From Candidatus Poribacteria bacterium (lineage in GTDB: Bacteria > Poribacteria > WGA-4E > WGA-3G): a stretch of 64,000 bases of DNA. The stretch lies in contig OZ242029.1 in the NCBI GenBank assembly GCA_965205015.1, positions 4,512,001 through 4,576,000 on the forward strand, read 5' to 3'. Positions within the stretch are counted from its first letter, which is position 1, and every line of letters starts with the position of its first letter. Below, piece after piece: positions 6,307-55,283 of the stretch. A model generated the notes under the pieces. The model ran no database searches and had not been told where the DNA came from. It saw only the letters and a program-made list of their open reading frames with translations. The translations under genes and the position numbers were made by a program.

Positions 6307-7380
6307 ATGAATCGACACGAGCAAGAAGCAATCGTGAACGCAGGAGCATTGCAAACCGTCTGTAGTCAACTGTACCAAAAAGTAGGTGTTGCGCAATCGG
6401 ATGCAGATACCGTCGCAGAAATGCAGGTACTGATGGATTTGCGCGGCGTTCATTCGCACGCGACACGCGCCGTGCCACGTTATGTCCGAGGTATCATCAA
6501 CGGTGATATAAATCCGACACCGGCACTTCAAACGCTTGAAGACAACGCCGCCTCCGTTTTATTAGACGGTGACCGGGGATTGGGACATCTCGTCGGTGTC
6601 CGTGCAATGAACATCGCCGTTGAAAAAGCGAAGTCCACTTCGATCGGTGTGGCTGTTGTTCGGAATAGCAATCACTTCGGGGCTGCCTCCAGCCATGCGA
6701 TACGAGCCACAGAACACGATATGATCGGTTTCGCGACCACCAACGGCTTGGGTGTGAACGTCGCCGTCTTCGGTGCGAAAAGCACTTCGATCGGAAATAA
6801 TGCGCTCTCCTTTGCTATCCCTGCTGGTGAAGAGCCTCCGATCGTATTGGATATGGCGTGCGGTGCTGCCGCCGCTGGACGTATCGGAACCGCAAGGTTA
6901 TACGAAGAAAAAATCCCATTGGGATGGGCATTGGACGCTGACGGCAACGAAACCGATGATCCCAGTAAGGTTGCCGCGATCTTACCTGCCGCAGGTCCCA
7001 AAGGTTCCGCACTTGCGATCGTGATGGATATCTTATGTGGTCCCTTAAGCGGTGGACTGATGGGTATCAACAAGCATTATCAGCCTGGAGATGCCCCACG
7101 AGAGAAACGCGTATCAGCACACTTTTTCCTCGCAATCAACATCGCCAGTTTCACCTCCATCACAGAATTTAAGGCTGAAATTGATCGGCAGATTCGGATG
7201 ACACGTCAAGCCACCCCACGCAGCGGATTTACGCGTGTCACTCTCCCCGGCGAGATTGAGTGGGAATTGACGCAAGAACGCCTCGCAAATGGGATTCCGC
7301 TGCACAAGGAGCCATTGCGGGAACTCGAGCAGCTTGCCGACGAATTGGATGTTGAAATTCCATGGAGCGGTTGTAATTAG
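6307..7380 (+). CDS. Ldh_2 (malate/L-lactate/ureidoglycolate dehydrogenase) family oxidoreductase
   Basis: DLRGVHSH, NSNHFG, GNNALSFAIP, LDMA, GPKGSAL, LPGEIE; start placed at the ATG after AAGGAG. Confidence 0.88.
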   Translation: MNRHEQEAIVNAGALQTVCSQLYQKVGVAQSDADTVAEMQVLMDLRGVHSHATRAVPRYVRGIINGDINPTPALQTLEDNAASVLLDGDRGLGHLVGVRAMNIAVEKAKSTSIGVAVVRNSNHFGAASSHAIRATEHDMIGFATTNGLGVNVAVFGAKSTSIGNNALSFAIPAGEEPPIVLDMACGAAAAGRIGTARLYEEKIPLGWALDADGNETDDPSKVAAILPAAGPKGSALAIVMDILCGPLSGGLMGINKHYQPGDAPREKRVSAHFFLAINIASFTSITEFKAEIDRQIRMTRQATPRSGFTRVTLPGEIEWELTQERLANGIPLHKEPLRELEQLADELDVEIPWSGCN

Positions 7381-7391
7381 TATAGAAAAAT

Positions 7392-7420
7392 TTGACATTC
7401 GTTAGAAAATCAGGTATAAT
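7392..7420 (+). promoter_or_regulatory. sigma70-type promoter of argF
   Basis: TTGACA-17 nt-TATAAT. Confidence 0.8.
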
Positions 7421-7533
7421 TATGCTTTCTTATTTATCACCGAGAGTCTTGAAGACACTGCACAACCTTTCTATGGGTTGTAAAGGATGGAAACCTTCCA
7501 TCGATTTCTAAGCACTCTACTGTGGAGGTAATT

Positions 7534-8478
7534 ATGCATCTAATTACGCTAAACCCATGGTCAGAAAAAGACATTCTTGAAACAGTTGAAAACAGTCTGA
7601 ACATCAAAAACCATCCTGAAAAATATAGACACGCTGTCGGTGGAAAGAGTCTCTGCCTGCTTTTCCAAAAGACCTCCACGCGCACGCGCTGCGCCGGTGA
7701 AATCGGTATAACGCAACTCGGTGGACATGCCCATTACCTCGACTGGCGCACGACAAACTTTGCATTAGCCGACCTTGGCGACGAAATGCGTGTCCTTTCG
7801 GGGTATGTTGATATTATCTTAGCACGGTTCTTGCAACACTCGGAACTCGTTGAGGCGGCAGCCGCTGCAACCGTTCCAGTCATTAACGGCTGTTGTGACA
7901 AATACCATCCAACGCAAGCCCTTGGCGATCTGATGACGATCCGGGAGCACCTCGGTAGACTGGAAGGGGTCAAATTGTGCTTTATCGGTGTGCATAACAA
8001 CGTCTGTAATTCGTTGATCGCCGCCGGTATGAAAGTAGGTATGGAAGTCACAGTCGTCGCACCAGAGGTGAATCCTGCTGCTGTCGACAAAGAACTATGG
8101 GAAGACGCCTCTCGCAAAGGTCTCTATAAAACGCTTAATACCGACACCGCGGCGATGGAGAGTTCATTGGAGAAAATAATTGCCAAAAGCGATGTCGTCT
8201 ACACAGATACATGGGTGGATATGGAGTTCTTCACGGATCCAGCTTTTGCAAAAGAACGGAAACGTCGGTTAGAAAAGATGATGCCGTATCAATTGAATGC
8301 TGAACTGCTGAAAGCACACGAGTGTCGGGTTATGCACTGCCTTCCCGCACACCACGGATATGAAATTTCGGGTGAACTCATTAACGATGAACGCTCAATT
8401 ATCTTTGAGCAATCCGAAAACCGTCTCTATAGCATGAAAGCGATCCTTCTCAAACTGCTTGGAGATGCCAGCCCGTAA
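7534..8478 (+). CDS. argF: ornithine carbamoyltransferase
   Basis: STRTR, HPTQ, YTDTW and HCLP motifs; GGAGG RBS. Confidence 0.88.
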   Translation: MHLITLNPWSEKDILETVENSLNIKNHPEKYRHAVGGKSLCLLFQKTSTRTRCAGEIGITQLGGHAHYLDWRTTNFALADLGDEMRVLSGYVDIILARFLQHSELVEAAAAATVPVINGCCDKYHPTQALGDLMTIREHLGRLEGVKLCFIGVHNNVCNSLIAAGMKVGMEVTVVAPEVNPAAVDKELWEDASRKGLYKTLNTDTAAMESSLEKIIAKSDVVYTDTWVDMEFFTDPAFAKERKRRLEKMMPYQLNAELLKAHECRVMHCLPAHHGYEISGELINDERSIIFEQSENRLYSMKAILLKLLGDASP

Positions 8479-8550
8479 ACATCACGGTTCATTTCTGTGC
8501 TGTGGTCGCAATCCTTTTATGTCGATGATTAGCAAAAAGGAGAAGAACCG

Positions 8551-8886
8551 ATGGAAAAACTGATGTATCCATTCATGACACGCGTCTTATTACCAGAAGA
8601 AGGGGGCGGTTATTTAATCGAGTTTCCGGACCTTCCGGGTTGTATGTCCGATGGCGAGACGCTTGAAGAAGCCATTGAAAATGGAAAGGATGCCCTGCAG
8701 TGCTGGCTTGAAGCAGCAGCAGCAGATGGACAGGAAATACCTGAGCCGGGTTCATCGCCAACGTGGATTCAACAAGTTCCTAACCATATTCATATACAAC
8801 TGTCCCAACGGGCGGCGGCAGAAGGCATGAGCATTTCTGAACTCGTTGCCTCAATATTGGGCCAAGCCACAGATAATACAAGATGA
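8551..8886 (+). CDS. HicB family antitoxin (no HicA seen)
   Basis: EEGGGYLIEFPDLPGCMSDGETLEEA plus C-terminal RHH-like segment. Confidence 0.85.
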   Translation: MEKLMYPFMTRVLLPEEGGGYLIEFPDLPGCMSDGETLEEAIENGKDALQCWLEAAAADGQEIPEPGSSPTWIQQVPNHIHIQLSQRAAAEGMSISELVASILGQATDNTR

Positions 8887-8953
8887 TGGAAGGGCTCTCG
8901 ACCGAACGCGAAGCAGTCATAAACAGTATAAACATCCAACCTAAAACGAAGTC

Positions 8954-10135
8954 GTGACGCTTGTAGGGGCTGCCCCTATTGCTGAGGCAAAAAAGTTGAA
9001 AAATCTGGAATGTAGTAGGTGTAACGAAACTTATGACCATCTCACCCCGCAGAATGTCTGTACCACTTGCGGAAAACCGCTACTTGCCCGCTACGCGCTT
9101 GAACAGATCGCAGAAACATGGACGCGGGACACGCTCCAGTTGAGACCCCCCTCACTCTGGCGTTATTCGGAACTCCTACCCATATCTAACCCAGCCGACA
9201 TCGTAACGCTTGGGGAAACGATGACCCCCCTCGTCCATACAAAGCGGTTGGGAGCAACGTTTGGACTTACAGACGTGTGGGTGAAGGACGAATCCCGATT
9301 ACCCACTGGAAGTTTCAAAGCGCGCGGTTTAGCAATGGCAGTTTCCAAGGCAAAGTCGCTCGGATTAACGCAATTAGCGATTCCTTCTGCTGGCAATGCC
9401 GCGACTGCCCTCTCAGTTTACGCCGCTGCTGCAGGTGTATCGGCACATATCTTTATGCCACAAGATACGCCTCCCTTCAATAAAGAGACGTGTCAACTCG
9501 CCGGTGCAAACGTCACACTGATTGAGGGTCTCATTACGGATGCAGGTCGAATTGTCACAGAACGGAAGGAGCAGGAAGGATGGTTTGATGTGTCAACGCT
9601 GAAAGAACCCTACCGCGTGGAAGGGAAAAAAACGATGGGGTTTGAGCTCGCCGAGCAGTGTGGATGGGAATTGCCGGACGTTATCATCTATCCGACCGGC
9701 GGCGGTACCGGTATCGTCGGGATGTGGAAAGGCTTCGCGGAATTAGAAGCCATCGGTTGGATAGGCAAGAAAAGACCACGGTTCATCTCTGTACAGTCAG
9801 CAGGATGTGCTCCGATTGTTAGGGCATGGGAAGAAGGTGCTACCGAAGCAACTCCCTGGCGTGATGCACATACCGTTGCGAGTGGTTTGCGAGTCCCACA
9901 AGCCATCGGGGATTTCCTCATTTTAGAGGCGATTCGTAAAAGCAACGGTGCCGCGATTGCCGTCACGGACGATGCCATCCGTGAAGCAATGCAACTGCTC
10001 CCCACAACCGAAGGGATTTTGACATGCCCCGAAGGCGCTGCAACTGTCGCTGCACTCAAACAACTCGTCTCGAATGGGATGATTCAAGACACCGAGCGCG
10101 TTGTACTTTTTAATACAGGCGGCTACCAGTCATAG
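8954..10135 (+). CDS. thrC: threonine synthase (PLP, fold type II); true start may be the TTG near 8996
   Basis: N-terminal CxxC/CxxC, SLWRY, PTGSFKARG, SAGNA, EGKKT, PTGGG, CPEGAA. Confidence 0.82.
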   Translation: MTLVGAAPIAEAKKLKNLECSRCNETYDHLTPQNVCTTCGKPLLARYALEQIAETWTRDTLQLRPPSLWRYSELLPISNPADIVTLGETMTPLVHTKRLGATFGLTDVWVKDESRLPTGSFKARGLAMAVSKAKSLGLTQLAIPSAGNAATALSVYAAAAGVSAHIFMPQDTPPFNKETCQLAGANVTLIEGLITDAGRIVTERKEQEGWFDVSTLKEPYRVEGKKTMGFELAEQCGWELPDVIIYPTGGGTGIVGMWKGFAELEAIGWIGKKRPRFISVQSAGCAPIVRAWEEGATEATPWRDAHTVASGLRVPQAIGDFLILEAIRKSNGAAIAVTDDAIREAMQLLPTTEGILTCPEGAATVAALKQLVSNGMIQDTERVVLFNTGGYQS

Positions 10136-16526: not shown

Positions 16527-17294
16527 GTGAAAGGCACAAGACCTTTAGACAACGTTGAAATCCGTAAGGTATCAGCGGCTTTTGACGGAGCATTCACCAT
16601 TCGGAATAGAAGTCTATTCATGCTGGGTGTCTCCGTCGGTGGACGGATTAGCGAATTGATTGCACTGAAAGTGAACGACGTATGGCAGAACGACAAACCG
16701 GTTTCTGATTTGCTGTTTGATCGGAACATTGTAAAGGGCGGTGAGGTATCGAGAGCAGTGCCTGTGAACATAGACGGCAGGCAGGCAATTGAAGACCTTG
16801 TCGCTTGGCATCTTAAACTCTATGGGAATGCTGATCCAATCCGTCCACTCTTCCCTTCCCGGAAAGGACAAGGTTTGAAAGCGATGACGAGAATAGCGGC
16901 GCACGATGCGCTAAAGGGCGCGTTTGAAACGGCGGGCTTAAATGGAAAACTTGGCACGCATTCTCTACGGAAGTCTTACGCGCAACGTCTTTATGAACAG
17001 ACGAACGATATTTATGCCGTACAAGAAATGTTAGGGCATAAAAGCGTCGTAACAACACAGCGATATTTAGGTGTAAACTATGCAAGCGTTCGGGATGCAT
17101 CGGAAGCAATGTCCATTCATTCCGAATCTAACAGAAGTGTGCAAACGTTAGGTTCGGTAAATGAAGCCTCGGATGACGTGCTTTTAATCGAATTGCTCCG
17201 CAGAGGATTTGATGTCGCTCGACTACTTGAAAAGAGTGAAACAGAGCAACCTTTTTCACTTCCAGATGAAGAGACAGCAGCAAAATTCGTTTAA
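16527..17294 (+). CDS. tyrosine recombinase/integrase
   Basis: Catalytic residues GGRISE (R), K, HSLRKS (HxxR), LGHKS (H), TQRY (Y). Confidence 0.9.
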   Translation: MKGTRPLDNVEIRKVSAAFDGAFTIRNRSLFMLGVSVGGRISELIALKVNDVWQNDKPVSDLLFDRNIVKGGEVSRAVPVNIDGRQAIEDLVAWHLKLYGNADPIRPLFPSRKGQGLKAMTRIAAHDALKGAFETAGLNGKLGTHSLRKSYAQRLYEQTNDIYAVQEMLGHKSVVTTQRYLGVNYASVRDASEAMSIHSESNRSVQTLGSVNEASDDVLLIELLRRGFDVARLLEKSETEQPFSLPDEETAAKFV

Positions 17295-17978: not shown

Positions 17979-18006
17979 TAGGCAGGACATGTCTTTGTCC
18001 TGCCTA
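17979..18006. terminator. hairpin (GTAG-REP-like) between convergent genes
   Basis: TAGGCAGGACA-tgtctt-TGTCCTGCCTA, perfect 11 bp stem. Confidence 0.6.
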
Positions 18007-18143
18007 TTGCATGTACGAAAATATTTCTTGAAATAATCTAAGCCGCTACAATGCCCTTATATTTTTCGGGTAGGGTTACCATAGCGGGGTATCTTTTTCA
18101 GGGGGCTTGTAGGGCATTCTCGAAAGGATTTTTTTTAGCTGCC

Positions 18144-19331
18144 CTAAAAAGCCAACCATCGGTGAAAGAGGACGCCTTTCCCTTCAGGTTCCACCACTCG
18201 TAATAAAACTTTCCCATCATTGAGAAAATCTATCGCCATGAAACCGGTATGTTGATGTGCGAATAGCGTATTGTCGCCGGACATCACTTCGGTCACTTTT
18301 CGGCTCGCCGCGGCACCACTCACGAGAAGATAATCGGTAACTTCGCCCTTCAAAACCTGCAGGGAATGTTCATGCCCAGCAGCGTAGATTAAGAGTGGCG
18401 GACCTTGCGGTGGCAATTTTCGTTTGGCAAACGCCCCGTTTAACTGCGCGACCATATTTTTGTTGTGTGTGCCGCTCAGGTCTTGATCAGATCTGTAGAG
18501 GTGCCACCGTGCGTATGGATAGATGGAACCCACTATCGGTATCGGGATCCAGAGCCATTTTTTCATAAATCTGACAGGAAAGAGGTGTGCCTTCCAGTCA
18601 TGGAAACCGCCATGGGGTCCGTAACTTTCCAGTGGATGGTGTCCGACGACGATGACGGGTAATTCCGTATCTAAGAGGGCAACGAGTTCTTCTATCACCT
18701 GTTGAGGTACTTTTTTCGGTTTCTCATGTTGATGGAGCCACCACTGCGTGTCCAGCACAACAAGCCGTACTGCGGGGTCGGTTTTCGGGAGTTCAAGGGA
18801 AACAGGACCGGGTGAGCCACCCGGTGGCAGAAAATTCGATTCACCCGCAAGCGCATCGTTGATAAACTTTTCTTGGGCAAGGACTGCACGAAGTCCCTCT
18901 GCTCGTCCACTCGCCCAATCATGGTTTCCGGGTATAAAGAGTCCGTGGGCACCCGTAGATTTGACCACGGCGAGTTGTGGCATAAGCCGAGCCGATGCTT
19001 CATGCTTCTTCCGCTCCGTCATCCCTTCGGGATACATGTTATCGCCTAAAAAGACAACACTTGTGCGTGCTGGATCCTTTTTTGCCCATTCGTCGAGCGT
19101 TTTCAGGACAGGTTCATCCGGTTCCGGCTCTCCGCCATCCCCCAGTAATAAAAGGCGGTATCGGAGTATGCCTTCCGTTTGACTCTCATGTTTCGCACTA
19201 TCGGGTATATCGGGATGGTAATACGGCTTTGTATGACTACACCCGACAATTGTCAGTTGCACTGCTTGAACAATGCAACAGAGCAGAACAATGTAACGGG
19301 TGAAGTTGGGGCGTTGATAAAATTGTTTCAT
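18144..19331 (-). CDS. calcineurin-like metallophosphoesterase, exported
   Basis: GDGG, LGDNMYP, PGNHDW, GHHP, AGHEH motifs. Confidence 0.88.
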   Translation of the reverse strand: MKQFYQRPNFTRYIVLLCCIVQAVQLTIVGCSHTKPYYHPDIPDSAKHESQTEGILRYRLLLLGDGGEPEPDEPVLKTLDEWAKKDPARTSVVFLGDNMYPEGMTERKKHEASARLMPQLAVVKSTGAHGLFIPGNHDWASGRAEGLRAVLAQEKFINDALAGESNFLPPGGSPGPVSLELPKTDPAVRLVVLDTQWWLHQHEKPKKVPQQVIEELVALLDTELPVIVVGHHPLESYGPHGGFHDWKAHLFPVRFMKKWLWIPIPIVGSIYPYARWHLYRSDQDLSGTHNKNMVAQLNGAFAKRKLPPQGPPLLIYAAGHEHSLQVLKGEVTDYLLVSGAAASRKVTEVMSGDNTLFAHQHTGFMAIDFLNDGKVLLRVVEPEGKGVLFHRWLAF

Positions 19332-19386
19332 CTTCTAATACTCTCATGCTCCCGTTGCTATTGAGACATTCACGCAGAGAATCGCT

Positions 19387-20718
19387 TTAGGTGTCTATCC
19401 ATCGCTGAATGTGTTCAACAAGTTCTTCTCGCGGAACGATCTGTTGCTCTCTGCTTTCGAGATTCCGTATTGCCACTGTGCCTGCCTCTAATTCGTCAGA
19501 GCCGAGAATAACGGCGTACGGGATACCTTTCGTATCGGCGTATTTTATCTGTGTGCTGATACGCGTCGGACGACTGTAGACCTCTGTACGGATACTGTCT
19601 TGGCGTAGAAGCGTCGCCAATTTCAGGGATTCTTGGGCGAGTTCAGCATCGAAAACAGTAACTAATACCTGTGTCACCGTTTTACCTACGGTCGCGGGAA
19701 ACATATCAAATTCTTCCATCACGTCTATAATCCGTTCAATACCGAAACTGGTACCAGTCGCTGGATATCCCTGCTTGCTGAAACTTCCAATGAGTTCATC
19801 ATATCTCCCGCCGCCGGTGATACTCCCAATCTTCGGTTCCTCAACAACGGTTTCGTAGATCGGACCGGTATAGTATTCCAAGCCACGCACCATTGAAACG
19901 TTAATCCGATAGAACTCGTCCGGCACCCCAAGCGTTTCGAGATAGCCATTGAGTTCTTCTAATTCCACAATACCCTCTCTCGCCACTTCGGAGTCTCCGA
20001 GTTGTTCATTGAGTGCGTTCAGCACCGTCGCTGTATCACCTTCAATCTGCAGCAGTGCGAGCAGTTTTTCAATGACGGGTTCCGGAATCTGATTTTCTGC
20101 TAATTCGTCCCTGACCGCCGAAAGTCCAATTTTATCTAATTTATCAATAGACCGATAGAGTCCACCGAGTTGCTCGTCTGGCACCCCGGCGAATTGCCCG
20201 ATCCCAGTGATTAATTTTCGGTCGTTGATATTAACCTCGAATTGCTCAAAACCGAGCCGAGTGAGCACCTGATAGATGAGATTAACATTTTCAGCATCAG
20301 CGAGCATACTCTCGGTTCCTACCGTATCCGCATCGCATTGGAAGAATTGGCGATAGCGTCCTTTTTGTGGACGTTCCGCTCGCCAGACAGGATCGATCTG
20401 GTATCGCTTAAACGGTTTCGGGAGTTGTGGATGCATAGCAATAACTCGACAGAGCGGCACCGAAAGGTCGTAACGGAGAGAGATGTCCTCTTTTCCACCT
20501 ACGTGCCCTGCCTGATAGATGAGTTTCTCAGCATCCGGTCCGTATTTGCCTGTGAGGACTTCAGACAACTCAAGCGCGGGTGTTTGCAAGGGTTCAAACC
20601 CGAATTCCTCGAACACGTCTCGAATCACATCAATCACATACTGTCTACGAATCATCTGCTCAGGCAAAATGTCTCGCATCCCGCGCGGGACGCGCGGTTT
20701 AATAAAAGGGGTTGCCAT
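19387..20718 (-). CDS. hisS: histidine--tRNA ligase
   Basis: PRGMRD, LRYDLSVP, WRAERPQKGRYRQFFQCD, RGLEYYTG, GGGRYD, anticodon-binding domain. Confidence 0.95.
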   Translation of the reverse strand: MATPFIKPRVPRGMRDILPEQMIRRQYVIDVIRDVFEEFGFEPLQTPALELSEVLTGKYGPDAEKLIYQAGHVGGKEDISLRYDLSVPLCRVIAMHPQLPKPFKRYQIDPVWRAERPQKGRYRQFFQCDADTVGTESMLADAENVNLIYQVLTRLGFEQFEVNINDRKLITGIGQFAGVPDEQLGGLYRSIDKLDKIGLSAVRDELAENQIPEPVIEKLLALLQIEGDTATVLNALNEQLGDSEVAREGIVELEELNGYLETLGVPDEFYRINVSMVRGLEYYTGPIYETVVEEPKIGSITGGGRYDELIGSFSKQGYPATGTSFGIERIIDVMEEFDMFPATVGKTVTQVLVTVFDAELAQESLKLATLLRQDSIRTEVYSRPTRISTQIKYADTKGIPYAVILGSDELEAGTVAIRNLESREQQIVPREELVEHIQRWIDT

Positions 20719-20730
20719 AAGTTCGGCTCC

Positions 20731-21510
20731 TTAAATGTGCCCGGGGAGTGCCTGACTCCGCCGTCTTCGCAAACCTTTTTGGAGGGTCTGCTTCAGTTCT
20801 TCAATCTTCTCCCGTTTCCATGAATCCCTGAGTGCCTTTGGATTCGCAATGAGAGAAGATTCAGTCTCGCGCAGCAGTTCAACCACCTTGAGATTATTTG
20901 CCTTGATTGTACGCCGAGATGAAGTCGAATTGTCAATGATAGCATCCGCTTCCTCAGGAGGTTTCCCTTCAGTGGCACCGAAAGACAACATGAGTGTAAT
21001 GGGGGACTGATAAGTACCAGGAGTGTTAAGCCGCTTCCACGGTGTCAAAATCGTAGGTGCGACCTTATTTCCCGTTTTTTGAAGGATATATTTCTCGGAG
21101 ATATTTAAATATTCAGTGGAAATTCGAATGTTTCTACCCGAGAAATTCATCAAATCGTCAAACGTGTTAATGTCATCGCGTTCTTCACGAACAGCGAGGA
21201 GAATATCCATACGTCCGTATTCCAAAGGCAAGATTTCCTCAACATCCGCGTCAGTTTCTTCGACCCAATCTTGACCCGTAATTCCGACATCGTAGAAGTC
21301 ATCCATACCGACATAGACGGGTATCTCTTGGGGACGCGAAATTTTGATTTGAAATTCGTTGTCGTTGCGGAAGGTCGCGCGATAAGACCTATCCGTTTCG
21401 GTATAACCGTTGAGTTCGTAACCGGCGCGCTGAAACATCTCAAGCGTATCCGTCTGTAGACTCCCTTTCGGTAAAAGTAGTTTCAGCGTCCTTTGTGATT
21501 CCGTTTGCAT
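20731..21510 (-). CDS. hisG: ATP phosphoribosyltransferase, short form
   Basis: LPKGSL, RPQEIP, DVGITGQDW, STEY, FGATE; no C-terminal regulatory domain. Confidence 0.85.
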   Translation of the reverse strand: MQTESQRTLKLLLPKGSLQTDTLEMFQRAGYELNGYTETDRSYRATFRNDNEFQIKISRPQEIPVYVGMDDFYDVGITGQDWVEETDADVEEILPLEYGRMDILLAVREERDDINTFDDLMNFSGRNIRISTEYLNISEKYILQKTGNKVAPTILTPWKRLNTPGTYQSPITLMLSFGATEGKPPEEADAIIDNSTSSRRTIKANNLKVVELLRETESSLIANPKALRDSWKREKIEELKQTLQKGLRRRRSQALPGHI

Positions 21511-21548
21511 TATAAATTCTCCTTCTCCTATAAAGTACTGGGAAGTAT

Positions 21549-22988
21549 TCATAGAAGATCTTCAACAGTGACCACTTGTTTATCGCCCGTTTTGATTTGA
21601 ATTCTACACATCGGTTCATCGGAGACCAAACGGAGCAGATACTTATAATTCGCTTGGCTGGCGTACTCCTGCTGTGCCTGTAGATCACGCTCCATCAAGT
21701 CTACCTCAACGTTTTTACCCGATTTCCGCAGCGTTTCTGCGAGTCGTTGTGCTTCAGCAATGCCTTCGGGCGTTTCTGCTGCGATGAAGTAGTCTCTTTT
21801 CCCGTTAACAGGGGTTGCCTCGTTTGTGTCAGTAAAGGCTTCCACAAGTGCGTCAAATTGAAACGCAAATCCAGCACCAGGTATCGACGGACCTCCGAAG
21901 GAAGCGATCAGGTTGTCGTATCTTCCACCACCACAGAGTGGTAAACGTTTTTCAGGCAATTCGATTTGAAAAACCGTACCGGTATAGAAATCGAACCCGC
22001 GTGTGATACCTAAATTGATTTCAAAATCTGTAATACCGTAGTTTTCCAGACAGGCACAGAGGACAAGTAGTTCTTGACGTGCTGCTTGCGCTGTATCGCC
22101 GAGACGCGTCTCCCACGCTGTCATCACAGTGTCCTTATCGCCACAAATCCTTGAGACATCTATACAACACTGCGCCATATCTTCGGAAACATTGAAATAA
22201 CGGTGCCATCTCGCCTTATAAGTCTCCTCAGCAATCGTTGGCAGTTGCTCCGCAACGGCGGGGGCAGTGCTTTCGGTTAATCCCCGAATCGAGGCGGTTT
22301 CAATTTTGTAATTGCCTTGGTAGTCAGCTCCTTGCAGACGACGCAGCATCGTAAGCGCATCTTGCAGCGTTTCCAGATCCCACAGTTTACTTTCGTTACG
22401 GAGACTTACAAGATGGTCAATATCCCAAATCATTTCTGCTTGGTCTTTCGGATCCAAGGCACCCTGTTTGAAAATCTCGCGAAAAACGCCTGTATTGCCA
22501 ATTCTTAACTTCGTATGTGAGACGTTGAGTCTCTCAAGGACTCGGATCGGAATCGTAATAATTTCAGCATCTGCATGGACGGAAGCCGGTCCAATAAGTT
22601 CAACACCTGCCTGCCGGAATTCCCGCTTTACTTCGGCACCATCGGTAATCGGTTCCTGTCGGACACATTGTCCGATATAGTAGAGTTTATACGGATAAGG
22701 GAGATGTTTCAGTTCACCATTAGCGATGAGTCTACAGACAGGTGCGGTCAACTCAGGTCTCAGCGCATAATCCACCCGATCCGAACCGACGAACGTGAAC
22801 ATCTTGTGCCGGATCTCTTCGCCAGATTGCGCAGATAATAGGGCAAAGGCTTCAAACAGTGGGGTCTGGACCTGTGCGTATCCATAAGTTTCAAAGGTTT
22901 CGCGAACGATGTTTTCAACGAAATTTCGCTGAACCATCTGATCGGGTAGAAAATCGTTCGTTCCAGCAGGTTTCTCAAACTTTTCCAT
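21549..22988 (-). CDS. hisZ: ATP phosphoribosyltransferase regulatory subunit (HisRS paralog)
   Basis: LRPELTAP, REFRQAGVELIG, FYTG, GGGRYD; lies next to short hisG. Confidence 0.8.
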   Translation of the reverse strand: MEKFEKPAGTNDFLPDQMVQRNFVENIVRETFETYGYAQVQTPLFEAFALLSAQSGEEIRHKMFTFVGSDRVDYALRPELTAPVCRLIANGELKHLPYPYKLYYIGQCVRQEPITDGAEVKREFRQAGVELIGPASVHADAEIITIPIRVLERLNVSHTKLRIGNTGVFREIFKQGALDPKDQAEMIWDIDHLVSLRNESKLWDLETLQDALTMLRRLQGADYQGNYKIETASIRGLTESTAPAVAEQLPTIAEETYKARWHRYFNVSEDMAQCCIDVSRICGDKDTVMTAWETRLGDTAQAARQELLVLCACLENYGITDFEINLGITRGFDFYTGTVFQIELPEKRLPLCGGGRYDNLIASFGGPSIPGAGFAFQFDALVEAFTDTNEATPVNGKRDYFIAAETPEGIAEAQRLAETLRKSGKNVEVDLMERDLQAQQEYASQANYKYLLRLVSDEPMCRIQIKTGDKQVVTVEDLL

Positions 22989-23017
22989 ATTTTAATTTTT
23001 CCTTACGGTAAAATGTC

Positions 23018-23103
23018 AAAAAAAAAACCCAGTAAACAGCTTACTCTTTTTCTCGCGCGCATCGACAACGCGGCACGGAGGAGAGCGGCTCGTTTACCAG
23101 GGT
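23018..23103 (-). terminator. attenuator terminator of the his leader
   Basis: CCCUGGUAAACGAGC...GCUGUUUACUGGG followed by U10, about 30 nt before the hisZ start. Confidence 0.75.
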
Positions 23104-23166
23104 CCAAACAAGTTAAACTTGCTTCGTATCTAAAGGTATTTATTCATTTCCCATCATCCGCTCTAC

Positions 23167-23220
23167 TCAGAAATCGACCGAATGATGGTGATGGATATTC
23201 AATGTATTCGCGTTACACAT
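23167..23220 (-). CDS. hisL: his operon leader peptide MCNANTLNIHHHHSVDF
   Basis: ATG...CAT CAC CAT CAT...TGA between a consensus promoter and a terminator upstream of hisZ. Confidence 0.8.
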   Translation of the reverse strand: MCNANTLNIHHHHSVDF

Positions 23221-23317
23221 TTTTCATTTTCGCTCGCAATGTCGGGTCCCCACCCGTTACTCGGAAGGGGTCAAACTCAATATTAAAAAGTCAGTGATTT
23301 TAATTTAATTTAATGAT

Positions 23318-23346
23318 ATTATACCTCATTGAAAGATGAATGTCAA
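23318..23346 (-). promoter_or_regulatory. sigma70-type promoter of the his operon
   Basis: TTGACA-17 nt-TATAAT. Confidence 0.85.
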
Positions 23347-23374
23347 ATTTTTTTAGAGACCACCGAACAACACA

Positions 23375-25006
23375 ATGCAAATTAAACCTATTTACATCAT
23401 CTCTATCCTCGGTTTCCTGCTATCGGTACTCCTCTGCGGTATCTACTTTCAATTTTCCTACTTTGAACCGGACACCGTCTCGTATCTATTCCAAGCAAAG
23501 TTGTTCACCGAGGGTAAACTCTCGGTGCCAGCGCCTCCGGAACACGGGTTCTCCTCTTCCCCACATATCAACGTTCTAAACGGGAAATGGTATTCAAAAT
23601 ATCCATTCGGAAACGCCTTGATGCTGATGTTCGGTGTATTTATCAATGCCCCGTGGCTGATTCCGGCACTCGCAACGGGGGGCGCGCTGCTGCTGCTCTA
23701 TCTTTTTGTGAAAGAGATATACGGGAACATCCATCCCGGAATGGCACTCACTGCCGCGGTGCTCGCTCTCATTTCGCCAGCGACACTTGGGATGGGTTCG
23801 ACCTGGTTCAGCGAGCCCGTGAGTCGTTTCTATCTTTCGCTTTATCTCCTTACACTCCTCAGGACGCTGAATTGCCAAAAGGATGCCTCTCTCCTCGCAC
23901 GGGTCGGTTACCCACTGCTCTCAGGGTTTTCGTTGGGATACGCGTTCAATACACGCCCACTCTCGGCAGTCGTCTTTGGTGTTGTCGGCGCAGGGTTAAC
24001 ACTTTACCACCTGTTTACCCAATGGCACCATCGACACGAAGCGGTGCAAGCGGTGCCCTCTACCATAAAACGCTTAGGGTTCTTCTTTATTCCATTCGTT
24101 GTGATGCTTGGCGTGTGCATGTCATGGAACGCACATTTCACGGAAGAGCCGCTCATGTTTACACATACGGTCGCGCAGCCTTATGACAAAATCGGTTTCG
24201 GTGTTCGCACAGAAGGTTACGAACCTAATCTTGAACGGGCGTTTATTTTTACACCGGCATGGGCGATCGAAAGGACCTGGCGACACATCCTCCCGAGCAT
24301 CAGCTTTAACGCGCTCGGTTGGGGGAGCTATCACCACGATTTGTTGAAGGACATAAAATTATCAGTGACGTGGTTCGTCGCCTTTGTGCCGTTAATTCTG
24401 CCGTGGGTTCTGGTCTTTATACCTTTCTTCCACCGCTCGCGCAACAGATACGATGTGTTCTGTTTGTCCCTACTCGTCGCCAACTTGCTGCTTTACGCCT
24501 TCTTCTACTTTGAGGGTTCGACGTGGGGATTCACGCCTGTGAATGCTCGCTATTACACTGAGTCAACTTTTCTTGCGTTCATCCCATTAGCGGCGCGCGG
24601 AATATGTATCCTCAATGAACGGTTCAAACCGTTCCAAAGACGCGGGCTTGCGATTGGTGTCGGGATATGTTTTCTGTTGCTGAGCGTTAACGTGGTGTGG
24701 AGTTATGTCCGCATTGGGAAGGTGTACCAGAATTGGAGTCCTGTCTATCAGAAACTGCCACCGATGGTAGCGGAGCGGGATATTCACAATGCCGTTATTT
24801 TCGTGGCGCAACACCGAGGCGCGCCGATTGGCGATTATCCGTTTAAGGCTCTCCAAGAGGCGGACATTGTCTACTTCAAACTCGGTCCCGCACCCCGGTG
24901 GAAACTCACAAATAGTGACTGGCAGAATGTCTATGCCCAATATTTCACGGGTCGGAACGCCTATCTGTACGTGCCTCGTGAAAACAGCCTTACACATTTA
25001 AAATAA
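23375..25006 (+). CDS. GT-C fold (ArnT/PMT-like) polytopic membrane glycosyltransferase
   Basis: EPDxxxYLFQA, YSKYP.G, NTRP, RYY motifs; many TM helices. Confidence 0.7.
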   Translation: MQIKPIYIISILGFLLSVLLCGIYFQFSYFEPDTVSYLFQAKLFTEGKLSVPAPPEHGFSSSPHINVLNGKWYSKYPFGNALMLMFGVFINAPWLIPALATGGALLLLYLFVKEIYGNIHPGMALTAAVLALISPATLGMGSTWFSEPVSRFYLSLYLLTLLRTLNCQKDASLLARVGYPLLSGFSLGYAFNTRPLSAVVFGVVGAGLTLYHLFTQWHHRHEAVQAVPSTIKRLGFFFIPFVVMLGVCMSWNAHFTEEPLMFTHTVAQPYDKIGFGVRTEGYEPNLERAFIFTPAWAIERTWRHILPSISFNALGWGSYHHDLLKDIKLSVTWFVAFVPLILPWVLVFIPFFHRSRNRYDVFCLSLLVANLLLYAFFYFEGSTWGFTPVNARYYTESTFLAFIPLAARGICILNERFKPFQRRGLAIGVGICFLLLSVNVVWSYVRIGKVYQNWSPVYQKLPPMVAERDIHNAVIFVAQHRGAPIGDYPFKALQEADIVYFKLGPAPRWKLTNSDWQNVYAQYFTGRNAYLYVPRENSLTHLK

Positions 25007-25042
25007 GCGTAAGACCTTCGCCTATCGCTATAGAGCAAGAAC

Positions 25043-26152
25043 CTACATTACCTGTTCCAAAATGACAATATCCCCAGGGTTCCACGATTGCGCAATGATG
25101 TAAAGTTTACCGTCAATCTTACGGATCACAGCGCCGTGTAGATGCTGGAAAGTCTCCACACCCAACTCCTCTTTTAGCATAACCGTTGAGACAAGGTTGT
25201 TGCCCTCCAAGATGTAGAGCGGCGCGCCTTTCTCTTTATTCGGTCCGAAGAGACATGCGACGACAGCATATCCTGCTTCGTAGTCAATGCTACAGGGGAA
25301 TGATCCTTTGATAAGGAAGAGTGTTTCCAAGTAGGTACCATCTGGGGAATAACGTTCAATTTCTGCGTTTGCCCGATCGGAAGCATCCAATCGCTGTGTG
25401 CCGTAAGGCACTGTAATGTGGTGTCCTGTACCGAATTGCCCCGGTTCATCACCTTTACCGCCGAATGCCAACGGATACCAACTCGCCTCAAGCGGTTCAA
25501 GGCTTGTGAGTTTCACTCCCAGAATATAATCCAAATCGGAGTACCCAGTCGTAACGTAAAGCATTCCATCAATATGCGTGATACCGGTGGGTACGAACTT
25601 CCCACCCTCACTGAAATAGGTGTTAACTGCCTGATTCTTGAAATCGGTCATTGCGTCCGGAGCTTCCAGTGTATGAACGAGCTTCCCCTCCATCGTCGTC
25701 GTGAAAATTTTGCCGACATCGTCTGCCGGGAAGGAGAGGTAAGATGCCCCGGTAGAGGTGGTCCAGACGGTTGTGTAGTGGGCATTGGCTTTTTTCAGCG
25801 CAGGAGGGGTCTCAATGCGTCGCGTCGTCTTCAGATCTGCACTGATCTGGATGATGCCGACACCAGGGAGCGCAAAATAGGTTTCACCTTTCCCTTCCCG
25901 TCGGTCTACGTCAAACCCACCGTGTGCTTCATCAATTGCGGGGACGACTTCTGGCGGAAAATGGTCGCGCGTATAGAGGACCTTGAACTTCAGCGCGCCT
26001 TGCCCACTGGTTAGCTTCATGTCAGGTGCTTCATGATGCGCTACAAACTGGAAATTTCCTGTTCCTGTTGGAGGGTGTTCTGTTACATGCGCAGAAACAC
26101 CTCCAATTATTATAAAGGTAACGGCAAAAATTAAAACGACAACCCGTTTCAT
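25043..26152 (-). CDS. secreted hypothetical protein, probably NHL-like propeller
   Basis: Signal peptide; FGGKGDEPGQFGTGH and SDRAN resemble NHL blades. Confidence 0.6.
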   Translation of the reverse strand: MKRVVVLIFAVTFIIIGGVSAHVTEHPPTGTGNFQFVAHHEAPDMKLTSGQGALKFKVLYTRDHFPPEVVPAIDEAHGGFDVDRREGKGETYFALPGVGIIQISADLKTTRRIETPPALKKANAHYTTVWTTSTGASYLSFPADDVGKIFTTTMEGKLVHTLEAPDAMTDFKNQAVNTYFSEGGKFVPTGITHIDGMLYVTTGYSDLDYILGVKLTSLEPLEASWYPLAFGGKGDEPGQFGTGHHITVPYGTQRLDASDRANAEIERYSPDGTYLETLFLIKGSFPCSIDYEAGYAVVACLFGPNKEKGAPLYILEGNNLVSTVMLKEELGVETFQHLHGAVIRKIDGKLYIIAQSWNPGDIVILEQVM

Positions 26153-26165
26153 CTAAATCTCCTCT

Positions 26166-26939
26166 CTATGCTTGTATCATCGCTCGAAACTTTTTGGTAA
26201 ACTCGCAACTGCGCGCAATACTCGCGACATCTTCCATCTTGTACTGGACAACGAGCGGACCTGAAAAACCGATCTCCTTCAAGCCTTGCGCAAACGTCTC
26301 AAAATCGAAAACGCCGCCACCCGGTTCCCCGCGGTTACTTCCCGATACATGGACATCACCGAGGCACGCCTTCATGGCGTGCGCCGCCGTGTGCGGTTCA
26401 GCCCCATCGTTGAAAAGATGATACGTATCACACGTCAGATAGACCTGCAGGCCCGTATCCTCAATGAATGCCACACCCTCGCGATAGTTATCAAGCGGAC
26501 ACCCCTTCTCAAACTCAAGTGCAATCTTCATCCCGTTTTCATTGCAAGCGGGTATCATCTGAGACAGGCTATCGGCAAGTGCGTCCAGAGATTCCTGTCT
26601 CGACACACCTTCGGACGGATTCACCCATACCCCAATGACTTCAGCATCGAATCGGCGTGCAACCTCAAGGACGATCTCAAAGTGCTGCAACGCTTCAGTT
26701 TTTCGGGCGGGTGTTGTTAAGATATGATTGCCGAATCCAATCGTTGGGGCAACGAGATTGTGTTTCTCGGCGAGGTTAACCGCGTCATCTATCTCCGCAG
26801 CCGAGAGTTCACCGAGAAAACCGGAATTCACAGGAATGTTGATACCCTCGTAGCCTGCATCGGCGACAAGGTCAAAAATCTTGGCACGTGTGAATCTACC
26901 CAATGTGCCAGAATACGGGTCATAACAGATAGTTAGCAT
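26166..26939 (-). CDS. sugar phosphate isomerase/epimerase (AP_endonuc_2 TIM barrel)
   Basis: ALEF, DTYH, VHVSGSNRGEPG.G motifs. Confidence 0.8.
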   Translation of the reverse strand: MLTICYDPYSGTLGRFTRAKIFDLVADAGYEGINIPVNSGFLGELSAAEIDDAVNLAEKHNLVAPTIGFGNHILTTPARKTEALQHFEIVLEVARRFDAEVIGVWVNPSEGVSRQESLDALADSLSQMIPACNENGMKIALEFEKGCPLDNYREGVAFIEDTGLQVYLTCDTYHLFNDGAEPHTAAHAMKACLGDVHVSGSNRGEPGGGVFDFETFAQGLKEIGFSGPLVVQYKMEDVASIARSCEFTKKFRAMIQA

Positions 26940-26989
26940 TTTTTCCTACACAGATACCGCCCCCTACGGGGCTTGAATTGATTGTCAAA

Positions 26990-27220
26990 TTATTCAGAAT
27001 CGCTTCTTCCATCGGTTTCTTTTGATAAGGGATATGGATCTTCTTTTGTCAGTTCACCATTGGGGAGTTCATAGTAGAGGTGCCCATTGAAATCATAGAC
27101 GTTCGGAATCCCTTTTTTACGGTTTTCCTCTTGGGCTCTTTTGACGGCGCGATTACCAATCCTCAGGAACTCAAGTGTTTCTTCATAAATATCAACAGAA
27201 TCTAATTTGTCGTTGCGCAT
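26990..27220 (-). CDS. small protein coupled to zeta toxin (putative antitoxin)
   Basis: RAVKRAQEENRKKGIPNVY, typical of zeta/AAA partners; overlaps the upstream stop. Confidence 0.65.
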   Translation of the reverse strand: MRNDKLDSVDIYEETLEFLRIGNRAVKRAQEENRKKGIPNVYDFNGHLYYELPNGELTKEDPYPLSKETDGRSDSE

Positions 27221-27862: not shown

Positions 27863-29152
27863 TTACTTCTTGTTCAGACAGCACTGCTTATATTTCCGTC
27901 CACTCCCGCAGGGACACGGCGAGTTTCGTCCGATTTTCCGTGAACCTATTGGTGTATTAGTGCTTATTTTTTCTTGCTGACGCTGGCGCAAGATCGGCAT
28001 AATACTATTCGCAGGTCGTCCCGCTTGTAGTGCGGAAGCCATCATTTTCATCGGTTCGTCAATGTGATTGAAAAACTGCTTATAGCCAGCACAGAGATAG
28101 TTCAAGCCATCTTCACCCGTAGGTGTTTTGATGAATCGGTTCTTTGGGCAGCCACCGTTGCAAACGAACTTCACTTCGCAACTTCGACAGTATTCGGGCA
28201 GCGTATCGCGTTTATCGGTCCCGAATTTGCGTTGAAATGTTGAATCTACCATCTCGGCAATCGTGTTGTCCGCGATATTTCCGACGTGATAATCAGGCGT
28301 GACGTAATGGTCACAAGAGTAGAGGTCGCCGTTGTGCTCAATTGCGAGGGCATCCCCGCACGTTTCATTGAAAACACAGAGGCTCGGATTATAACCCAGC
28401 CATGCCTCCAGTGCGATATCGAAAATCTGGACGAAAACCCGTCCGATGTCGTTCACCACCCATTCATCAAAAATAGCGCAAAGGAATTTGCCGTATTGCC
28501 GCGCCGTGACGGAACGCGGGGACACATTCTTTCCATCGAAATGCTCGACCGCTGGAATAAACTGCATAAACTCTGCACCGAGTTCTTTGAAGTAGTTATA
28601 GACCTCCAGCGGATATTCAGCGTTGTGTTTATTGACAACGCAAAGTATATTGTAATCGACCCGATGCTCCTGCAAGACCCGCAACCCACGAATGACTTGT
28701 TCAGACGATGGCCTGCCGCGTTTGTCATACCGATATTTATCGTGAATTTCTGGCGGTCCGTCGATGCTGACCCCGATTAAAAATCTGTTCCGCTTGAACA
28801 ACTCCGCCCATTCATCATTGAGGAGGGTGGCATTTGTCTGAAACGTATTTTGGATCTGCATACCCGGGCGTCTATACTTCTGCTGATATCTGACTGCTTG
28901 TCGGAAGAAGTCCACCCCCATCAACGTCGGTTCTCCACCTTGCCATGCGAACGTGACTTCGTTGGTCTCCTGGGCGTCAATGTATTGCTTGATGTAGTTC
29001 TCCAAAATTTCGTCAGTCATGCGGAAGGAACGCGTTTCGGGATAGAGTTTCTCTTTATCGAGATAGAAGCAGTACTCGCAATCCAAATTGCATATTGGAC
29101 CGATCGGCTTTGTCATCACATGAAATGCGCGCGGTGTGTTATGTTGAACCAT
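27863..29152 (-). CDS. anaerobic sulfatase maturase (radical SAM/SPASM) with SEC-C motif
   Basis: CNLDCEYC, WQGGEPTL, YSCDH, CxxCxxxxxCxGGCPK, terminal CPCGSGRKYKQCC. Confidence 0.92.
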   Translation of the reverse strand: MVQHNTPRAFHVMTKPIGPICNLDCEYCFYLDKEKLYPETRSFRMTDEILENYIKQYIDAQETNEVTFAWQGGEPTLMGVDFFRQAVRYQQKYRRPGMQIQNTFQTNATLLNDEWAELFKRNRFLIGVSIDGPPEIHDKYRYDKRGRPSSEQVIRGLRVLQEHRVDYNILCVVNKHNAEYPLEVYNYFKELGAEFMQFIPAVEHFDGKNVSPRSVTARQYGKFLCAIFDEWVVNDIGRVFVQIFDIALEAWLGYNPSLCVFNETCGDALAIEHNGDLYSCDHYVTPDYHVGNIADNTIAEMVDSTFQRKFGTDKRDTLPEYCRSCEVKFVCNGGCPKNRFIKTPTGEDGLNYLCAGYKQFFNHIDEPMKMMASALQAGRPANSIMPILRQRQQEKISTNTPIGSRKIGRNSPCPCGSGRKYKQCCLNKK

Positions 29153-53626: not shown

Positions 53627-55213
53627 TTATGCCAAGAAGACCTGCTTAACGAAGTCGATCTTCTTCTGTTCAGCAATGGTTTGTAAAACGCGCCGAGGCA
53701 CAGGACTATCTACGTTGATAAGCGTCACGGCGAGTTCCCATAAGCGTGAACGTCCGACAGTCATATCTGCGATGTTAATACCGTGCTCCCCGAGAATTGT
53801 TCCCATTAACCCTATCATTCCAGGCTGGTCACTATTGTAGATGAGGAGAATATAGCCGGTCGGTCTCACGTTTATATGAAGTTGATCTATTCGGACGATA
53901 CGGATGTCCTTTTTGCCGAAGGCAGTGCCTTCAATGACCGCTTCGCCTTTATCGGTTGTGATTGTAATGGCGATGGAGTTGGCAAAATCTGCTTCTGATT
54001 CGCTTTTCGTCTCTGTAACGGCGATCCCGCGTTGCTTAATCAGAAATGGGGCGTTTACATAGTTCACGTCCGTCAGCACAGGTGCCAAAAGCCCTTTCTG
54101 TAAAGCGACCGTTATCGGCGTAACGTCTTCTTTCTGGAAGAGCGTGCCGTTGTAATGGATTTTAATCGCGGAGATTTGTCCCTCAACAATTTGGGCGTGA
54201 AAACTGCCGATCTTTTCGGCAAGTTCCAGATAGGGACCCAAAATATCGAGTGTCCTCGGATCGATTTTCGGTTGATTTACGGCATTCGCGACGGGCTGTT
54301 CGCGGAGCGCGTTGATGACTTGCTGTGCCACCTCGACGGCGACATGTTCCTGTGCTTCTGATGTAGACGCACCGAGGTGTGGGAGTGCCAGCACACTCTC
54401 TAAGTCCAGCAGTGGGGTTTCGGTTGCCGGTTCGCTTTCAAAAACGTCCAGTGCAGCACCGGCGAGTTGTCCAGTTTTTAAGGCGTGATAGAGGGCATTT
54501 TCATCAATAATACCGCCACGCGCACAGTTAATCAGGCGGCAACTTGGCTTCATCAACGCAAATTCCGCTTCACCGACACTATGATACGTTTCGGCGTTGA
54601 GATGCGTGTGGACGGAAATGTAATCGGATTCCTGAAAAAGCGCATCCCGCTCGACGGGTCGAATGCCGATCTTTTCTGCCGCACTCGCTGAAATATACGG
54701 ATCGTAGGCGATGACTTGCATCCCGAAAGCCTGTGCGCGTCGGGCGACCTCTCGTCCGATCCGTCCCAGTCCGATCGTGCCAAAAACCTTCCCATATAAC
54801 TCAACCCCGATGAAGTCGTTGCGTTTCCACGTTTTGTTCCGGAGTGAAATCCCAGCAGGCACGATGTTGCGCGCCAATGCCAACAGCATCGCAATCGTAT
54901 GCTCCGCCGCCGCGATTGTGTTCCCCGTCGGTGTGTTGACAACCAGGATGCCGTTTCGCGTTGCGGCTTGTACATCAATATTATCCACACCGACCCCGGC
55001 GCGCCCGATGACCTTTAGCTGCTTGGCGTTGTCAATGACGTCCGCAGTCACTTTCGTCGCGCTTCTGATAAGTAGGGCATGATAGTCAGCAATCCGGTCC
55101 AACAGTTCTTCATGAGAGAGATTGAGATTAACGTCCACCTGAAAATCACCACTCTCTTCCAAAACATCCAAACCTCGCCGCGACAGCAGGTCGCTGACCA
55201 GCACCTTGTTCAT
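53627..55213 (-). CDS. serA: D-3-phosphoglycerate dehydrogenase
   Basis: RSATKV, RAGVGVDN, GLGRIG, NCARGG, PHLGAST.EAQ; ASB and ACT domains. Confidence 0.95.
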   Translation of the reverse strand: MNKVLVSDLLSRRGLDVLEESGDFQVDVNLNLSHEELLDRIADYHALLIRSATKVTADVIDNAKQLKVIGRAGVGVDNIDVQAATRNGILVVNTPTGNTIAAAEHTIAMLLALARNIVPAGISLRNKTWKRNDFIGVELYGKVFGTIGLGRIGREVARRAQAFGMQVIAYDPYISASAAEKIGIRPVERDALFQESDYISVHTHLNAETYHSVGEAEFALMKPSCRLINCARGGIIDENALYHALKTGQLAGAALDVFESEPATETPLLDLESVLALPHLGASTSEAQEHVAVEVAQQVINALREQPVANAVNQPKIDPRTLDILGPYLELAEKIGSFHAQIVEGQISAIKIHYNGTLFQKEDVTPITVALQKGLLAPVLTDVNYVNAPFLIKQRGIAVTETKSESEADFANSIAITITTDKGEAVIEGTAFGKKDIRIVRIDQLHINVRPTGYILLIYNSDQPGMIGLMGTILGEHGINIADMTVGRSRLWELAVTLINVDSPVPRRVLQTIAEQKKIDFVKQVFLA

Positions 55214-55283
55214 AATTCGGACTCCTCCACCGTTATCGTATCGAGACGACACCTTCCCCTCTTTGTTTGCAAGTTATCTTTAA

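Follow-up and report, generated by a model that had tools for sequence, protein, structure and literature searches.

A 64,000-nucleotide (nt) stretch of the genome of an uncultured Candidatus Poribacteria bacterium (contig OZ242029.1, positions 4,512,001 to 4,576,000; in the following the window, with coordinates counted from its first letter) carries on its minus strand a leader in front of the genes hisZ, hisG and hisS. This leader is very probably a ribosome-mediated leader-peptide attenuator that sets the expression of hisZ-hisG-hisS by the supply of charged tRNA-His, as indicated by sequence comparison and energy-model folding. An original prediction, made from the letters of the window, had described a perfect promoter, a short open reading frame (ORF) of 17 amino acids (aa) with His codons, a protector, an overlapping antiterminator and a long hairpin followed by ten U residues, and had read them by the logic of ribosome-mediated his attenuation. 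All its coordinates and pairings proved correct on the minus strand, and its logic is supported, with every structural element present in the window and in 48 other genomes.

Elements of the leader and proposed mechanism

The elements are listed in the order of transcription; region 4 denotes the 3' half of the terminator hairpin.

23318..23346, minus strand: sigma-70-type promoter with TTGACA at 23346-23341, a 17-nt spacer and TATAAT at 23323-23318 (12/12 match)
23248..23270, minus strand: 5' hairpin upstream of the leader ORF, present in the minimum free energy (MFE) and centroid structures
23167..23220, minus strand: leader ORF of 17 codons, MCNANTLNIHHHHSVDF, from the ATG at 23220 to the TGA at 23169-23167, the coordinates including the stop codon
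23176..23191, minus strand: region 1, 5' arm of the protector, made up of His codons 2-4 and the next codons (MFE structure and RNAalifold)
23149..23169, minus strand: region 2, from the stop codon on, partner of region 1 (protector) or of region 3 (antiterminator)
23104..23126, minus strand: middle hairpin, downstream of region 2 and ahead of the terminator, located within the antiterminator loop (-7.3 kcal/mol)
23078..23088, minus strand: region 3, within the 5' half of the terminator hairpin, partner of region 2 or of region 4
23018..23103, minus strand: intrinsic terminator, with basal, inner and apical helices (23103-23028) followed by U10 (23027-23018)

The following course of regulation is proposed. 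The very strong promoter would start a leader RNA of approximately 290 nt, presumably near 23311, and its 17-codon ORF would be translated. With plentiful histidine, the ribosome would reach the UGA stop codon and cover region 2, region 3 would pair with region 4, and the 76-nt terminator would be completed before the U10 tract, ending transcription 29 nt before hisZ. With scarce His-tRNA, the ribosome would come to a halt at the four His codons, occupy region 1 and free region 2, which would take region 3 once it is made and, in most relatives, add the CCCU of the basal 5' arm of the terminator; the terminator would then fail to nucleate in time, and RNA polymerase would read into hisZ-hisG-hisS. 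In RNA that carries no ribosome, the protector of regions 1 and 2 would form and termination would follow. What we infer from sequence and energy models is that the ORF is translated, that the folds compete kinetically and that the switch responds to histidine.

Conservation of the leader and of its reading frame

The best 120 protein matches to the hisZ-like product of the window were 87-100% identical to it, and the named ones among them belong to Candidatus Poribacteria. Eleven of these matches were aligned (alignment A1) and used to scan genome contigs, which yielded 51 loci, all from Poribacteria metagenome-assembled genomes or uncultured bacteria, with hisZ-like proteins 74-91% identical to that of the window. 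The ORF with its His codons is confirmed in the window and has a counterpart, a short His-run ORF upstream of hisZ, in 48 of the 51 loci; in the three loci that lack it, the upstream DNA breaks off at the contig end after just 36, 276 and 355 nt. An alignment of 255 columns (A2) was built from these 48 leaders and that of the window, and counts out of 49 refer to it. The original prediction had made its reading depend on conservation of the His run in related upstream regions. Four adjacent His codons, located at 23193-23182 on the minus strand of the window, were found in the window and in 47 of the 48 related leaders, and L043, the most distant locus, has three His codons and one more His. 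The gene order is conserved as well, as hisG follows the hisZ-like gene in 51/51 loci and hisS follows hisG in 48/51. In L023 and L036 the contig edge is reached before hisS. L026 has an ORF for an ABC-2 family permease (7123-8538) after hisG, where other loci have hisS, which may reflect a genomic rearrangement or a join made in assembly.

The leader ORF carries a coding signature and appears to be translated, judging from its invariant ATG, its frame-keeping indels and its third-position variation. The peptide consensus among the leaders is M-x-N-x-x-x-F-N-I-H-H-H-H-S-V-H-F. A2 shows no variation in the ATG, and insertions or deletions within the ORF measure 3 nt (L024, L029, L047, L049 and L050), the exception being a 1-nt deletion at the stop codon of L038, by which the stop is moved one codon on. 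Third positions of codons 7-9 (F-N-I) show an entropy of 0.97-1.69 bits as against 0.15-0.50 bits at positions 1 and 2. The His and S-V-H-F codons show only 0-0.15 bits even at synonymous positions, and since these codons lie inside the protector helix, their wobble invariance fits an additional RNA-pairing constraint. L004, L005 and L007 lack the UGA, so that their ORF continues across region 2 and ends at a stop codon 24-27 nt further on; an unstalled ribosome would there cover region 2 more fully, which would fit the attenuator model.

The coding signature also bears on a reading in which the His ORF is incidental and the leader is an RNA switch that works independently of translation, such as a T-box-like tRNA sensor, a riboswitch, a binding site for an RNA-binding antiterminator, or a site of autoregulation by HisZ or histidyl-tRNA synthetase (HisRS). 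Such a switch would not be out of place in front of hisS, as T-boxes control hisS genes of Firmicutes according to PMC2965389, and the strong conservation of the middle hairpin and of the A/U-rich 5' segment as well as the lack of a Shine-Dalgarno sequence at the leader ORF would be compatible with it. Frame conservation combined with third-position variation, however, is unexpected of an incidental ORF, and the only T-box-like GGGUGG belongs to the 5' hairpin, a feature missing from many relatives. Moreover, no Rfam family, T-box and His_leader included, was matched at the gathering score in the whole window or in 14 related loci. In positions 22000-24500, searched at E-values up to 10, only three matches at chance level were obtained (two snoRNA families and RNA-OUT, E 0.55-4.3), and neither the covariance model of His_leader (RF00514) nor that of the T-box (RF00230) gave a match in this region, or at the gathering score in the window and the 14 loci. 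The T-box, His_leader and riboswitch readings were dropped for want of an Rfam match, and a translation-independent switch is considered very unlikely.

Mutually exclusive pairings of the leader RNA

Folding, which had been named in the original prediction as a check, gave an MFE of -86.9 kcal/mol for the 324-nt leader (z = -2.9), and 0/100 shuffled sequences folded as well. Protector, middle hairpin and long terminator stand together in this MFE structure. The core of the protector pairs 23188-23179 with 23160-23151 (10 base pairs (bp) including one G-U pair), and the MFE structure widens it to 23191-23149 (-18.9 kcal/mol). The overlapping segment 23168-23158 can instead pair with 23088-23078 at 10 of 11 positions to give the antiterminator. 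The terminator hairpin spans 76 nt, contains three helices and has a free energy of -32.7 kcal/mol; a simple terminator scan omitted it, its loop and stem being beyond the limits of the scan.

RNAalifold applied to A2 likewise gave protector, middle hairpin and terminator. In this structure 98.9% of the alignment cells were paired, compared to 29-45% when the partner columns were slid, and 0/500 shuffles reached the observed number of paired cells, the number of compensatory cells or the covariation score. The protector (columns 64-73 with 92-101) was paired in 99.1% of the cells. It is kept in L002 despite two one-sided changes, and in L043, where the His codons pair with a different downstream segment (8-12 bp), it is kept with other letters. 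In the middle hairpin (columns 145-150 with 154-161) 99.3% of the cells were paired, with one-sided changes in four of the six pairs; its role as a pause site or a spacer is a guess. A terminator was present in 49/49 leaders, with a T run of 6-12 nt whose end lies 120-159 nt past the stop of the ORF. Its basal helix was 100% paired in 48 distinct rows, where all changes are one-sided, for example two tandem G-U pairs that became Watson-Crick pairs in five leaders. The compensatory changes, in four pairs and 28 cells, are all located in the apical helix. Covariation of both alternative stems had been put forward as a further check of the prediction. It was seen in the terminator at the apical helix; for the antiterminator, which is invariant, the shuffle control was uninformative.

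Region 2 is near-invariant among the 49 leaders, without variation even at synonymous sites. The antiterminator (columns 84-94 with 183-193 of A2) was paired in 88.6% of the cells, and its seven core pairs never vary. Since both strands are invariant, covariation neither supports nor contradicts it, and the case for this helix is built on invariance plus energy models. By itself the pairing of regions 2 and 3 competes with the inner helix of the terminator and not with the helix beside the U tract. In most relatives, region 2 reads ...GAUGAGGG, and the basal 5' arm offers its 3' part a partner in CCCU, at the position of 23102-23099, and in two further bases; this pairing had been overlooked in the original prediction. 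Through this second contact the antiterminator is made bipartite, with the middle hairpin inside. The window has a G-to-U change here (GAUGAUGGG), by which the protector becomes a perfect 10-bp helix and the basal-arm extension is cut to GGG:CCC; pairing of region 2 with basal arm plus region 3 amounts to -18.8 kcal/mol in the window. An antiterminator between the loop of the middle hairpin and the basal 5' arm was predicted by no fold.

To represent the moment at which the structure is chosen, the 49 leaders were cut just before the 3' basal arm and folded in three ribosome states, in which a stalled ribosome was modeled by masking the RNA through the fourth His codon plus 12 nt, and pairing of regions 2 and 3 was scored at >=6 bp. 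With a ribosome stalled on the His codons, regions 2 and 3 were paired in 47/49 leaders, compared to 5/49 in ribosome-free RNA and 1/49 when the stop codon was masked; in the latter state regions 3 and 4 were paired in 42/49. These folds are energy-model results on related sequences and not independent observations. In full-length MFE structures the protector was found in 49/49 and the basal terminator helix in 47/49 leaders.

Several points weigh against the attenuator. The antiterminator shows no compensatory change, and 500/500 shuffles scored as high as the alignment. In L043 and L044 it is not part of the MFE prediction. When the stall mask was applied to the full-length RNA, the terminator was lost from the MFE structure in 20/49 leaders and was still there in 29/49, the window included; since the terminator is kept in these 29 despite the mask, the switch would have to be kinetic, like that of classical attenuators. 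In the window only GGG:CCC of the basal arm is engaged by region 2 and the rest of the basal helix stays uncovered. The basal helix could in principle form as a pseudoknot beside the pairing of regions 2 and 3, a structure outside the scope of ViennaRNA, and this is the weakest point of the model. Upstream of the leader ATG there is an A-rich stretch only and no Shine-Dalgarno sequence, which hisS and hisG do have. Finally, the 48 relatives form one clade that was found with two peptide patterns, and they are therefore not independent.

Part of these observations would be explained if the leader were a leader-peptide attenuator whose effective switch is something other than the pairing of regions 2 and 3, be it Rho-dependent or translational control downstream or the sensing of general translation capacity. 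The absence of covariation for this pairing and the only partial sequestration of the basal terminator helix would both be expected, and most relatives have a fifth His codon near the stop, where a stalled ribosome would cover region 2. It is difficult to reconcile with this, however, that the four adjacent His codons are invariant in 48/49 leaders, that the folds in the three ribosome states match the classical model and that the regulated genes are all histidine-specific. We regard another switch as unlikely and retain the attenuator that works through regions 1 to 4.

Promoter, spacer and uniqueness of the leader in the window

Among the leaders with enough upstream DNA, the promoter is a 12/12 match in 42/46, the window counted, and the other four have TTGACT and match at 11/12. 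A promoter scan of positions 18000-27000 detected three promoter-like sites, compared to 10.2 expected from shuffles, and the leader promoter was the sole 12/12 match. Between the promoter and the 5' hairpin the leader has an A/U-rich 5' segment. Species differ in the 5' hairpin itself: some lack it, others have a plain GCAAG/CUUGC hairpin, and in a third form, that of the window, a nested insertion of about 30 nt is added to it. Its stem is similar to that of the conserved middle hairpin. This variable 5' hairpin is probably dispensable.

The ATG of hisZ lies 29 nt past the U run in the window. Among the leaders this spacer ranges from 24 to 539 nt and measures 24-42 nt in the window and nine others, which is too short for another promoter, and hisZ therefore depends on read-through in these ten. 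This result has to be set against the idea that the leader is an independent small gene, coding for an RNA of about 290 nt or for a 17-aa micropeptide, that its terminator is constitutive and that hisZ-hisG-hisS is transcribed from elsewhere. A perfect promoter together with a very strong terminator would indeed yield mostly a discrete small RNA, the amino-acid sequence F-N-I-HHHH-S-V-H-F is conserved, and the spacer of 55-539 nt in 39/49 leaders could hold another promoter. Where the spacer is short there is no room for one, no other promoter-like site is found on the minus strand in 18000-27000, and the leader is linked to hisZ in every locus. A small gene would moreover leave unexplained why region 2 is complementary to both regions 1 and 3 and why the stop codon abuts region 2. 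An independent small gene is accordingly very unlikely, and the leader is better understood as the attenuator of the operon behind it.

The spacer shows additional features. Given its range of lengths, it appears to be an insertion hot spot. Some loci carry in this spacer, 54-152 nt before the ATG, an element of approximately 40-70 nt that contains a hairpin of its own; it has the plus orientation in L014, L034 and L040 and the minus orientation in L016, L023, L027, L041 and L046. The window spacer lacks it, and neither the rest of the window nor any other part of the 51 loci contains a copy. An invertible switch between U run and ATG was considered and rejected, with low confidence and by eye, as only this element is inverted and not the whole spacer. 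In many long spacers (e.g., L002, L017, L034, L040), the last approximately 45 nt comprise a GGAGG and, between it and the hisZ ATG some 27-30 nt further on, a 7-bp hairpin, an arrangement in which the hairpin seems to bring a Shine-Dalgarno sequence close to the start codon. In the window there is an AAGGA 13-17 nt upstream of the ATG instead.

Within the six-frame translation of the 64-kb window, HHHH occurs in the leader ORF only. Likewise, the leader is the only intergenic place in the window where a short ORF with an amino-acid run is followed by a hairpin and a T run; the one other match to this pattern sits within a 502-aa ORF, and no further leader-peptide-like unit was found outside coding ORFs. 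No tRNA gene, and hence no tRNA-His gene, is present in the window. An ORF antisense to the leader (23013-23297, plus strand, 94 aa) was rejected as a gene, as it is open for >=90 aa in just 14/49 leaders and reaches 34-47 aa in ten.

Genes of the operon and genomic neighborhood

The operon behind the leader consists of three genes.

21549..22988, minus strand: hisZ-like gene, 479 aa, paralogue of HisRS (NCBIfam, Pfam and PDB matches)
20731..21510, minus strand: hisG, short form with the catalytic domain only (TIGR00070, 118.1 against a cut-off of 75.75)
19387..20718, minus strand: hisS, histidine--tRNA ligase (TIGR00442, 393.5 against 286.75; tRNA-synt_His and HGTP_anticodon)

The claim that the operon also contains the gene for histidyl-tRNA synthetase is thus confirmed by NCBIfam and Pfam. 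The hisZ-like protein scores below the cut-offs of both TIGR00442 (hisS; 276.6 against 286.75) and TIGR00443 (hisZ; 222.9 against 271.65). In Pfam it matches tRNA-synt_His only, HGTP_anticodon not being detected. Compared with PDB sequences, it matches HisRS and HisZ about equally well, and one HisRS chain aligns up to residue 476. In one public source, a protein 89% identical to it is named 'ATP phosphoribosyltransferase regulatory subunit'. The hisG product matches Pfam HisG only, and HisG_C was not found; the short form of HisG is the one that works with HisZ. A start of hisG at 21510, behind the Shine-Dalgarno sequence GGAGAAGGAG, is more likely than one at the ATG of the longest ORF (21552). 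This longest ORF overlaps the hisZ stop codon, and a 259-aa ORF in L026 also favors 21510. Depending on the start of hisG, hisZ and hisG are separated by 38 nt or overlap. The ATG of hisS follows 12 nt past hisG, with AAGGAG 8 nt before it. No terminator-like site was found between the hisZ-like gene, hisG and hisS of the window, and no other his gene was found in the 64 kb.

Downstream, a metallophosphoesterase-like ORF (18144-19331, minus strand, 395 aa) lies 55 nt past hisS with no terminator-like site in between and may be on the same transcript. Upstream, the divergent gene at 23375-25006 (plus strand, 543 aa) has no Pfam or NCBIfam match and is syntenic in 43/51 loci; the next ORF (25043-26152, minus strand, 369 aa) is likewise without a match in these databases. 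Further along the window, a short tyrosine-recombinase-like ORF at 16527-17294 (plus strand, 255 aa) matches only the C-terminal half of the XerC/XerD models, and an anaerobic sulfatase maturase is encoded at 27863-29152 (minus strand). Two intervals contain no ORF of >=150 aa, namely 8479-8953, upstream of thrC (8954-10135, plus strand), and 55253-56520, upstream of serA (53627-55252, minus strand), in the latter of which only small overlapping ORFs occur.

Comparison with known systems

In the literature searched, neither a leader-peptide attenuator of Poribacteria nor a broader survey covering the phylum was found; the publications on leader peptides and Poribacteria among the matches listed deal with natural products of sponges or with ribosomally synthesized and post-translationally modified peptides, or are general reviews on natural products and antibiotics. 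This agrees with the original prediction, which had placed the attenuator in an uncultured lineage for which it was not known to be described. The lineage is new; the mechanism is textbook, with published parallels before hisZ and hisS genes, and the Poribacteria His leader opens no new mechanism. What it provides is a clean example of an attenuator in an uncultured phylum, conserved in 48 genomes and usable as a marker of coupled transcription-translation and of histidine prototrophy. The leader is a candidate for a new RNA family, too: annotation pipelines now miss it, and Rfam has no match. Placing the first enzyme of the histidine pathway and histidyl-tRNA synthetase under a single switch is a sensible design with few documented parallels.

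The anatomy of the leader can be called unusual in that there is no Shine-Dalgarno sequence behind a perfect promoter, the terminator has 76 nt and three helices, the antiterminator is bipartite around a conserved hairpin, and hisS belongs to the operon. A more far-reaching reading would hold jointly that the attenuator evolved independently in Poribacteria with this unusual anatomy, that it ties only the committed step (HisZ-HisG) and HisRS to the charging of tRNA-His, and that the terminated RNA of about 290 nt may act in trans. Activity in trans has been reported for the trp attenuator RNA of rhizobia. Taken as a whole, this combination is rather unlikely.

Leader-peptide attenuation is textbook knowledge in Gammaproteobacteria and elsewhere mostly predicted, in Firmicutes and Actinobacteria. 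Seven His codons stand in a row in hisL of E. coli as opposed to four here. The logic of the gammaproteobacterial his leader is summarized in PMC9413887. By this logic, hisL of E. coli and Salmonella resembles the Poribacteria leader in its short ORF with tandem His codons, in the mutually exclusive 1:2, 2:3 and 3:4 hairpins and in an intrinsic terminator ahead of the first his gene, in these bacteria the gene for ATP phosphoribosyltransferase. The Poribacteria leader differs from RF00514 in that it matches neither in sequence nor in structure and has no Shine-Dalgarno sequence. It differs from the E. coli leader in its 76-nt terminator with three helices and its bipartite antiterminator spanning the middle hairpin. 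In contrast to the his operon of E. coli, the operon comprises hisZ-hisG plus hisS only and not the whole pathway.

Naville and Gautheret (2010, PMC2965389) predicted His leader peptides in front of hisZ and in front of a hisS paralogue in the Bacillus cereus group, at a time when leader peptides had, according to that text, been shown only in Proteobacteria and Actinobacteria. Leaders of hisZ are reported from Clostridium difficile and the Bacillus cereus group in PMC4833913, and PMC9413887 adds Peptostreptococcaceae and Erysipelotrichales. As in Poribacteria, a run of His codons precedes hisZ and a gene of the HisRS family outside the Proteobacteria, and the evidence comes from comparative genomics only. 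Going by their description, the Bacillus systems belong to another phylum and have separate leaders for hisZ and the hisS paralogue, whereas here one leader serves hisZ, hisG and a full-length hisS. The His T-box of Firmicutes (RF00230) also senses the charging of tRNA-His and places a terminator and an antiterminator before hisS or his genes (PMC2965389, PMC9413887), but it binds the tRNA directly and does not need translation.

Finally, the control of a synthetase operon by ribosomes stalling on codons for its own amino acid has a precedent in the pheST leader (pheM) of E. coli. That system concerns another amino acid and another lineage, and there is no biosynthetic gene in the pheST operon, whereas the leader of Poribacteria precedes hisZ and hisG as well as hisS.

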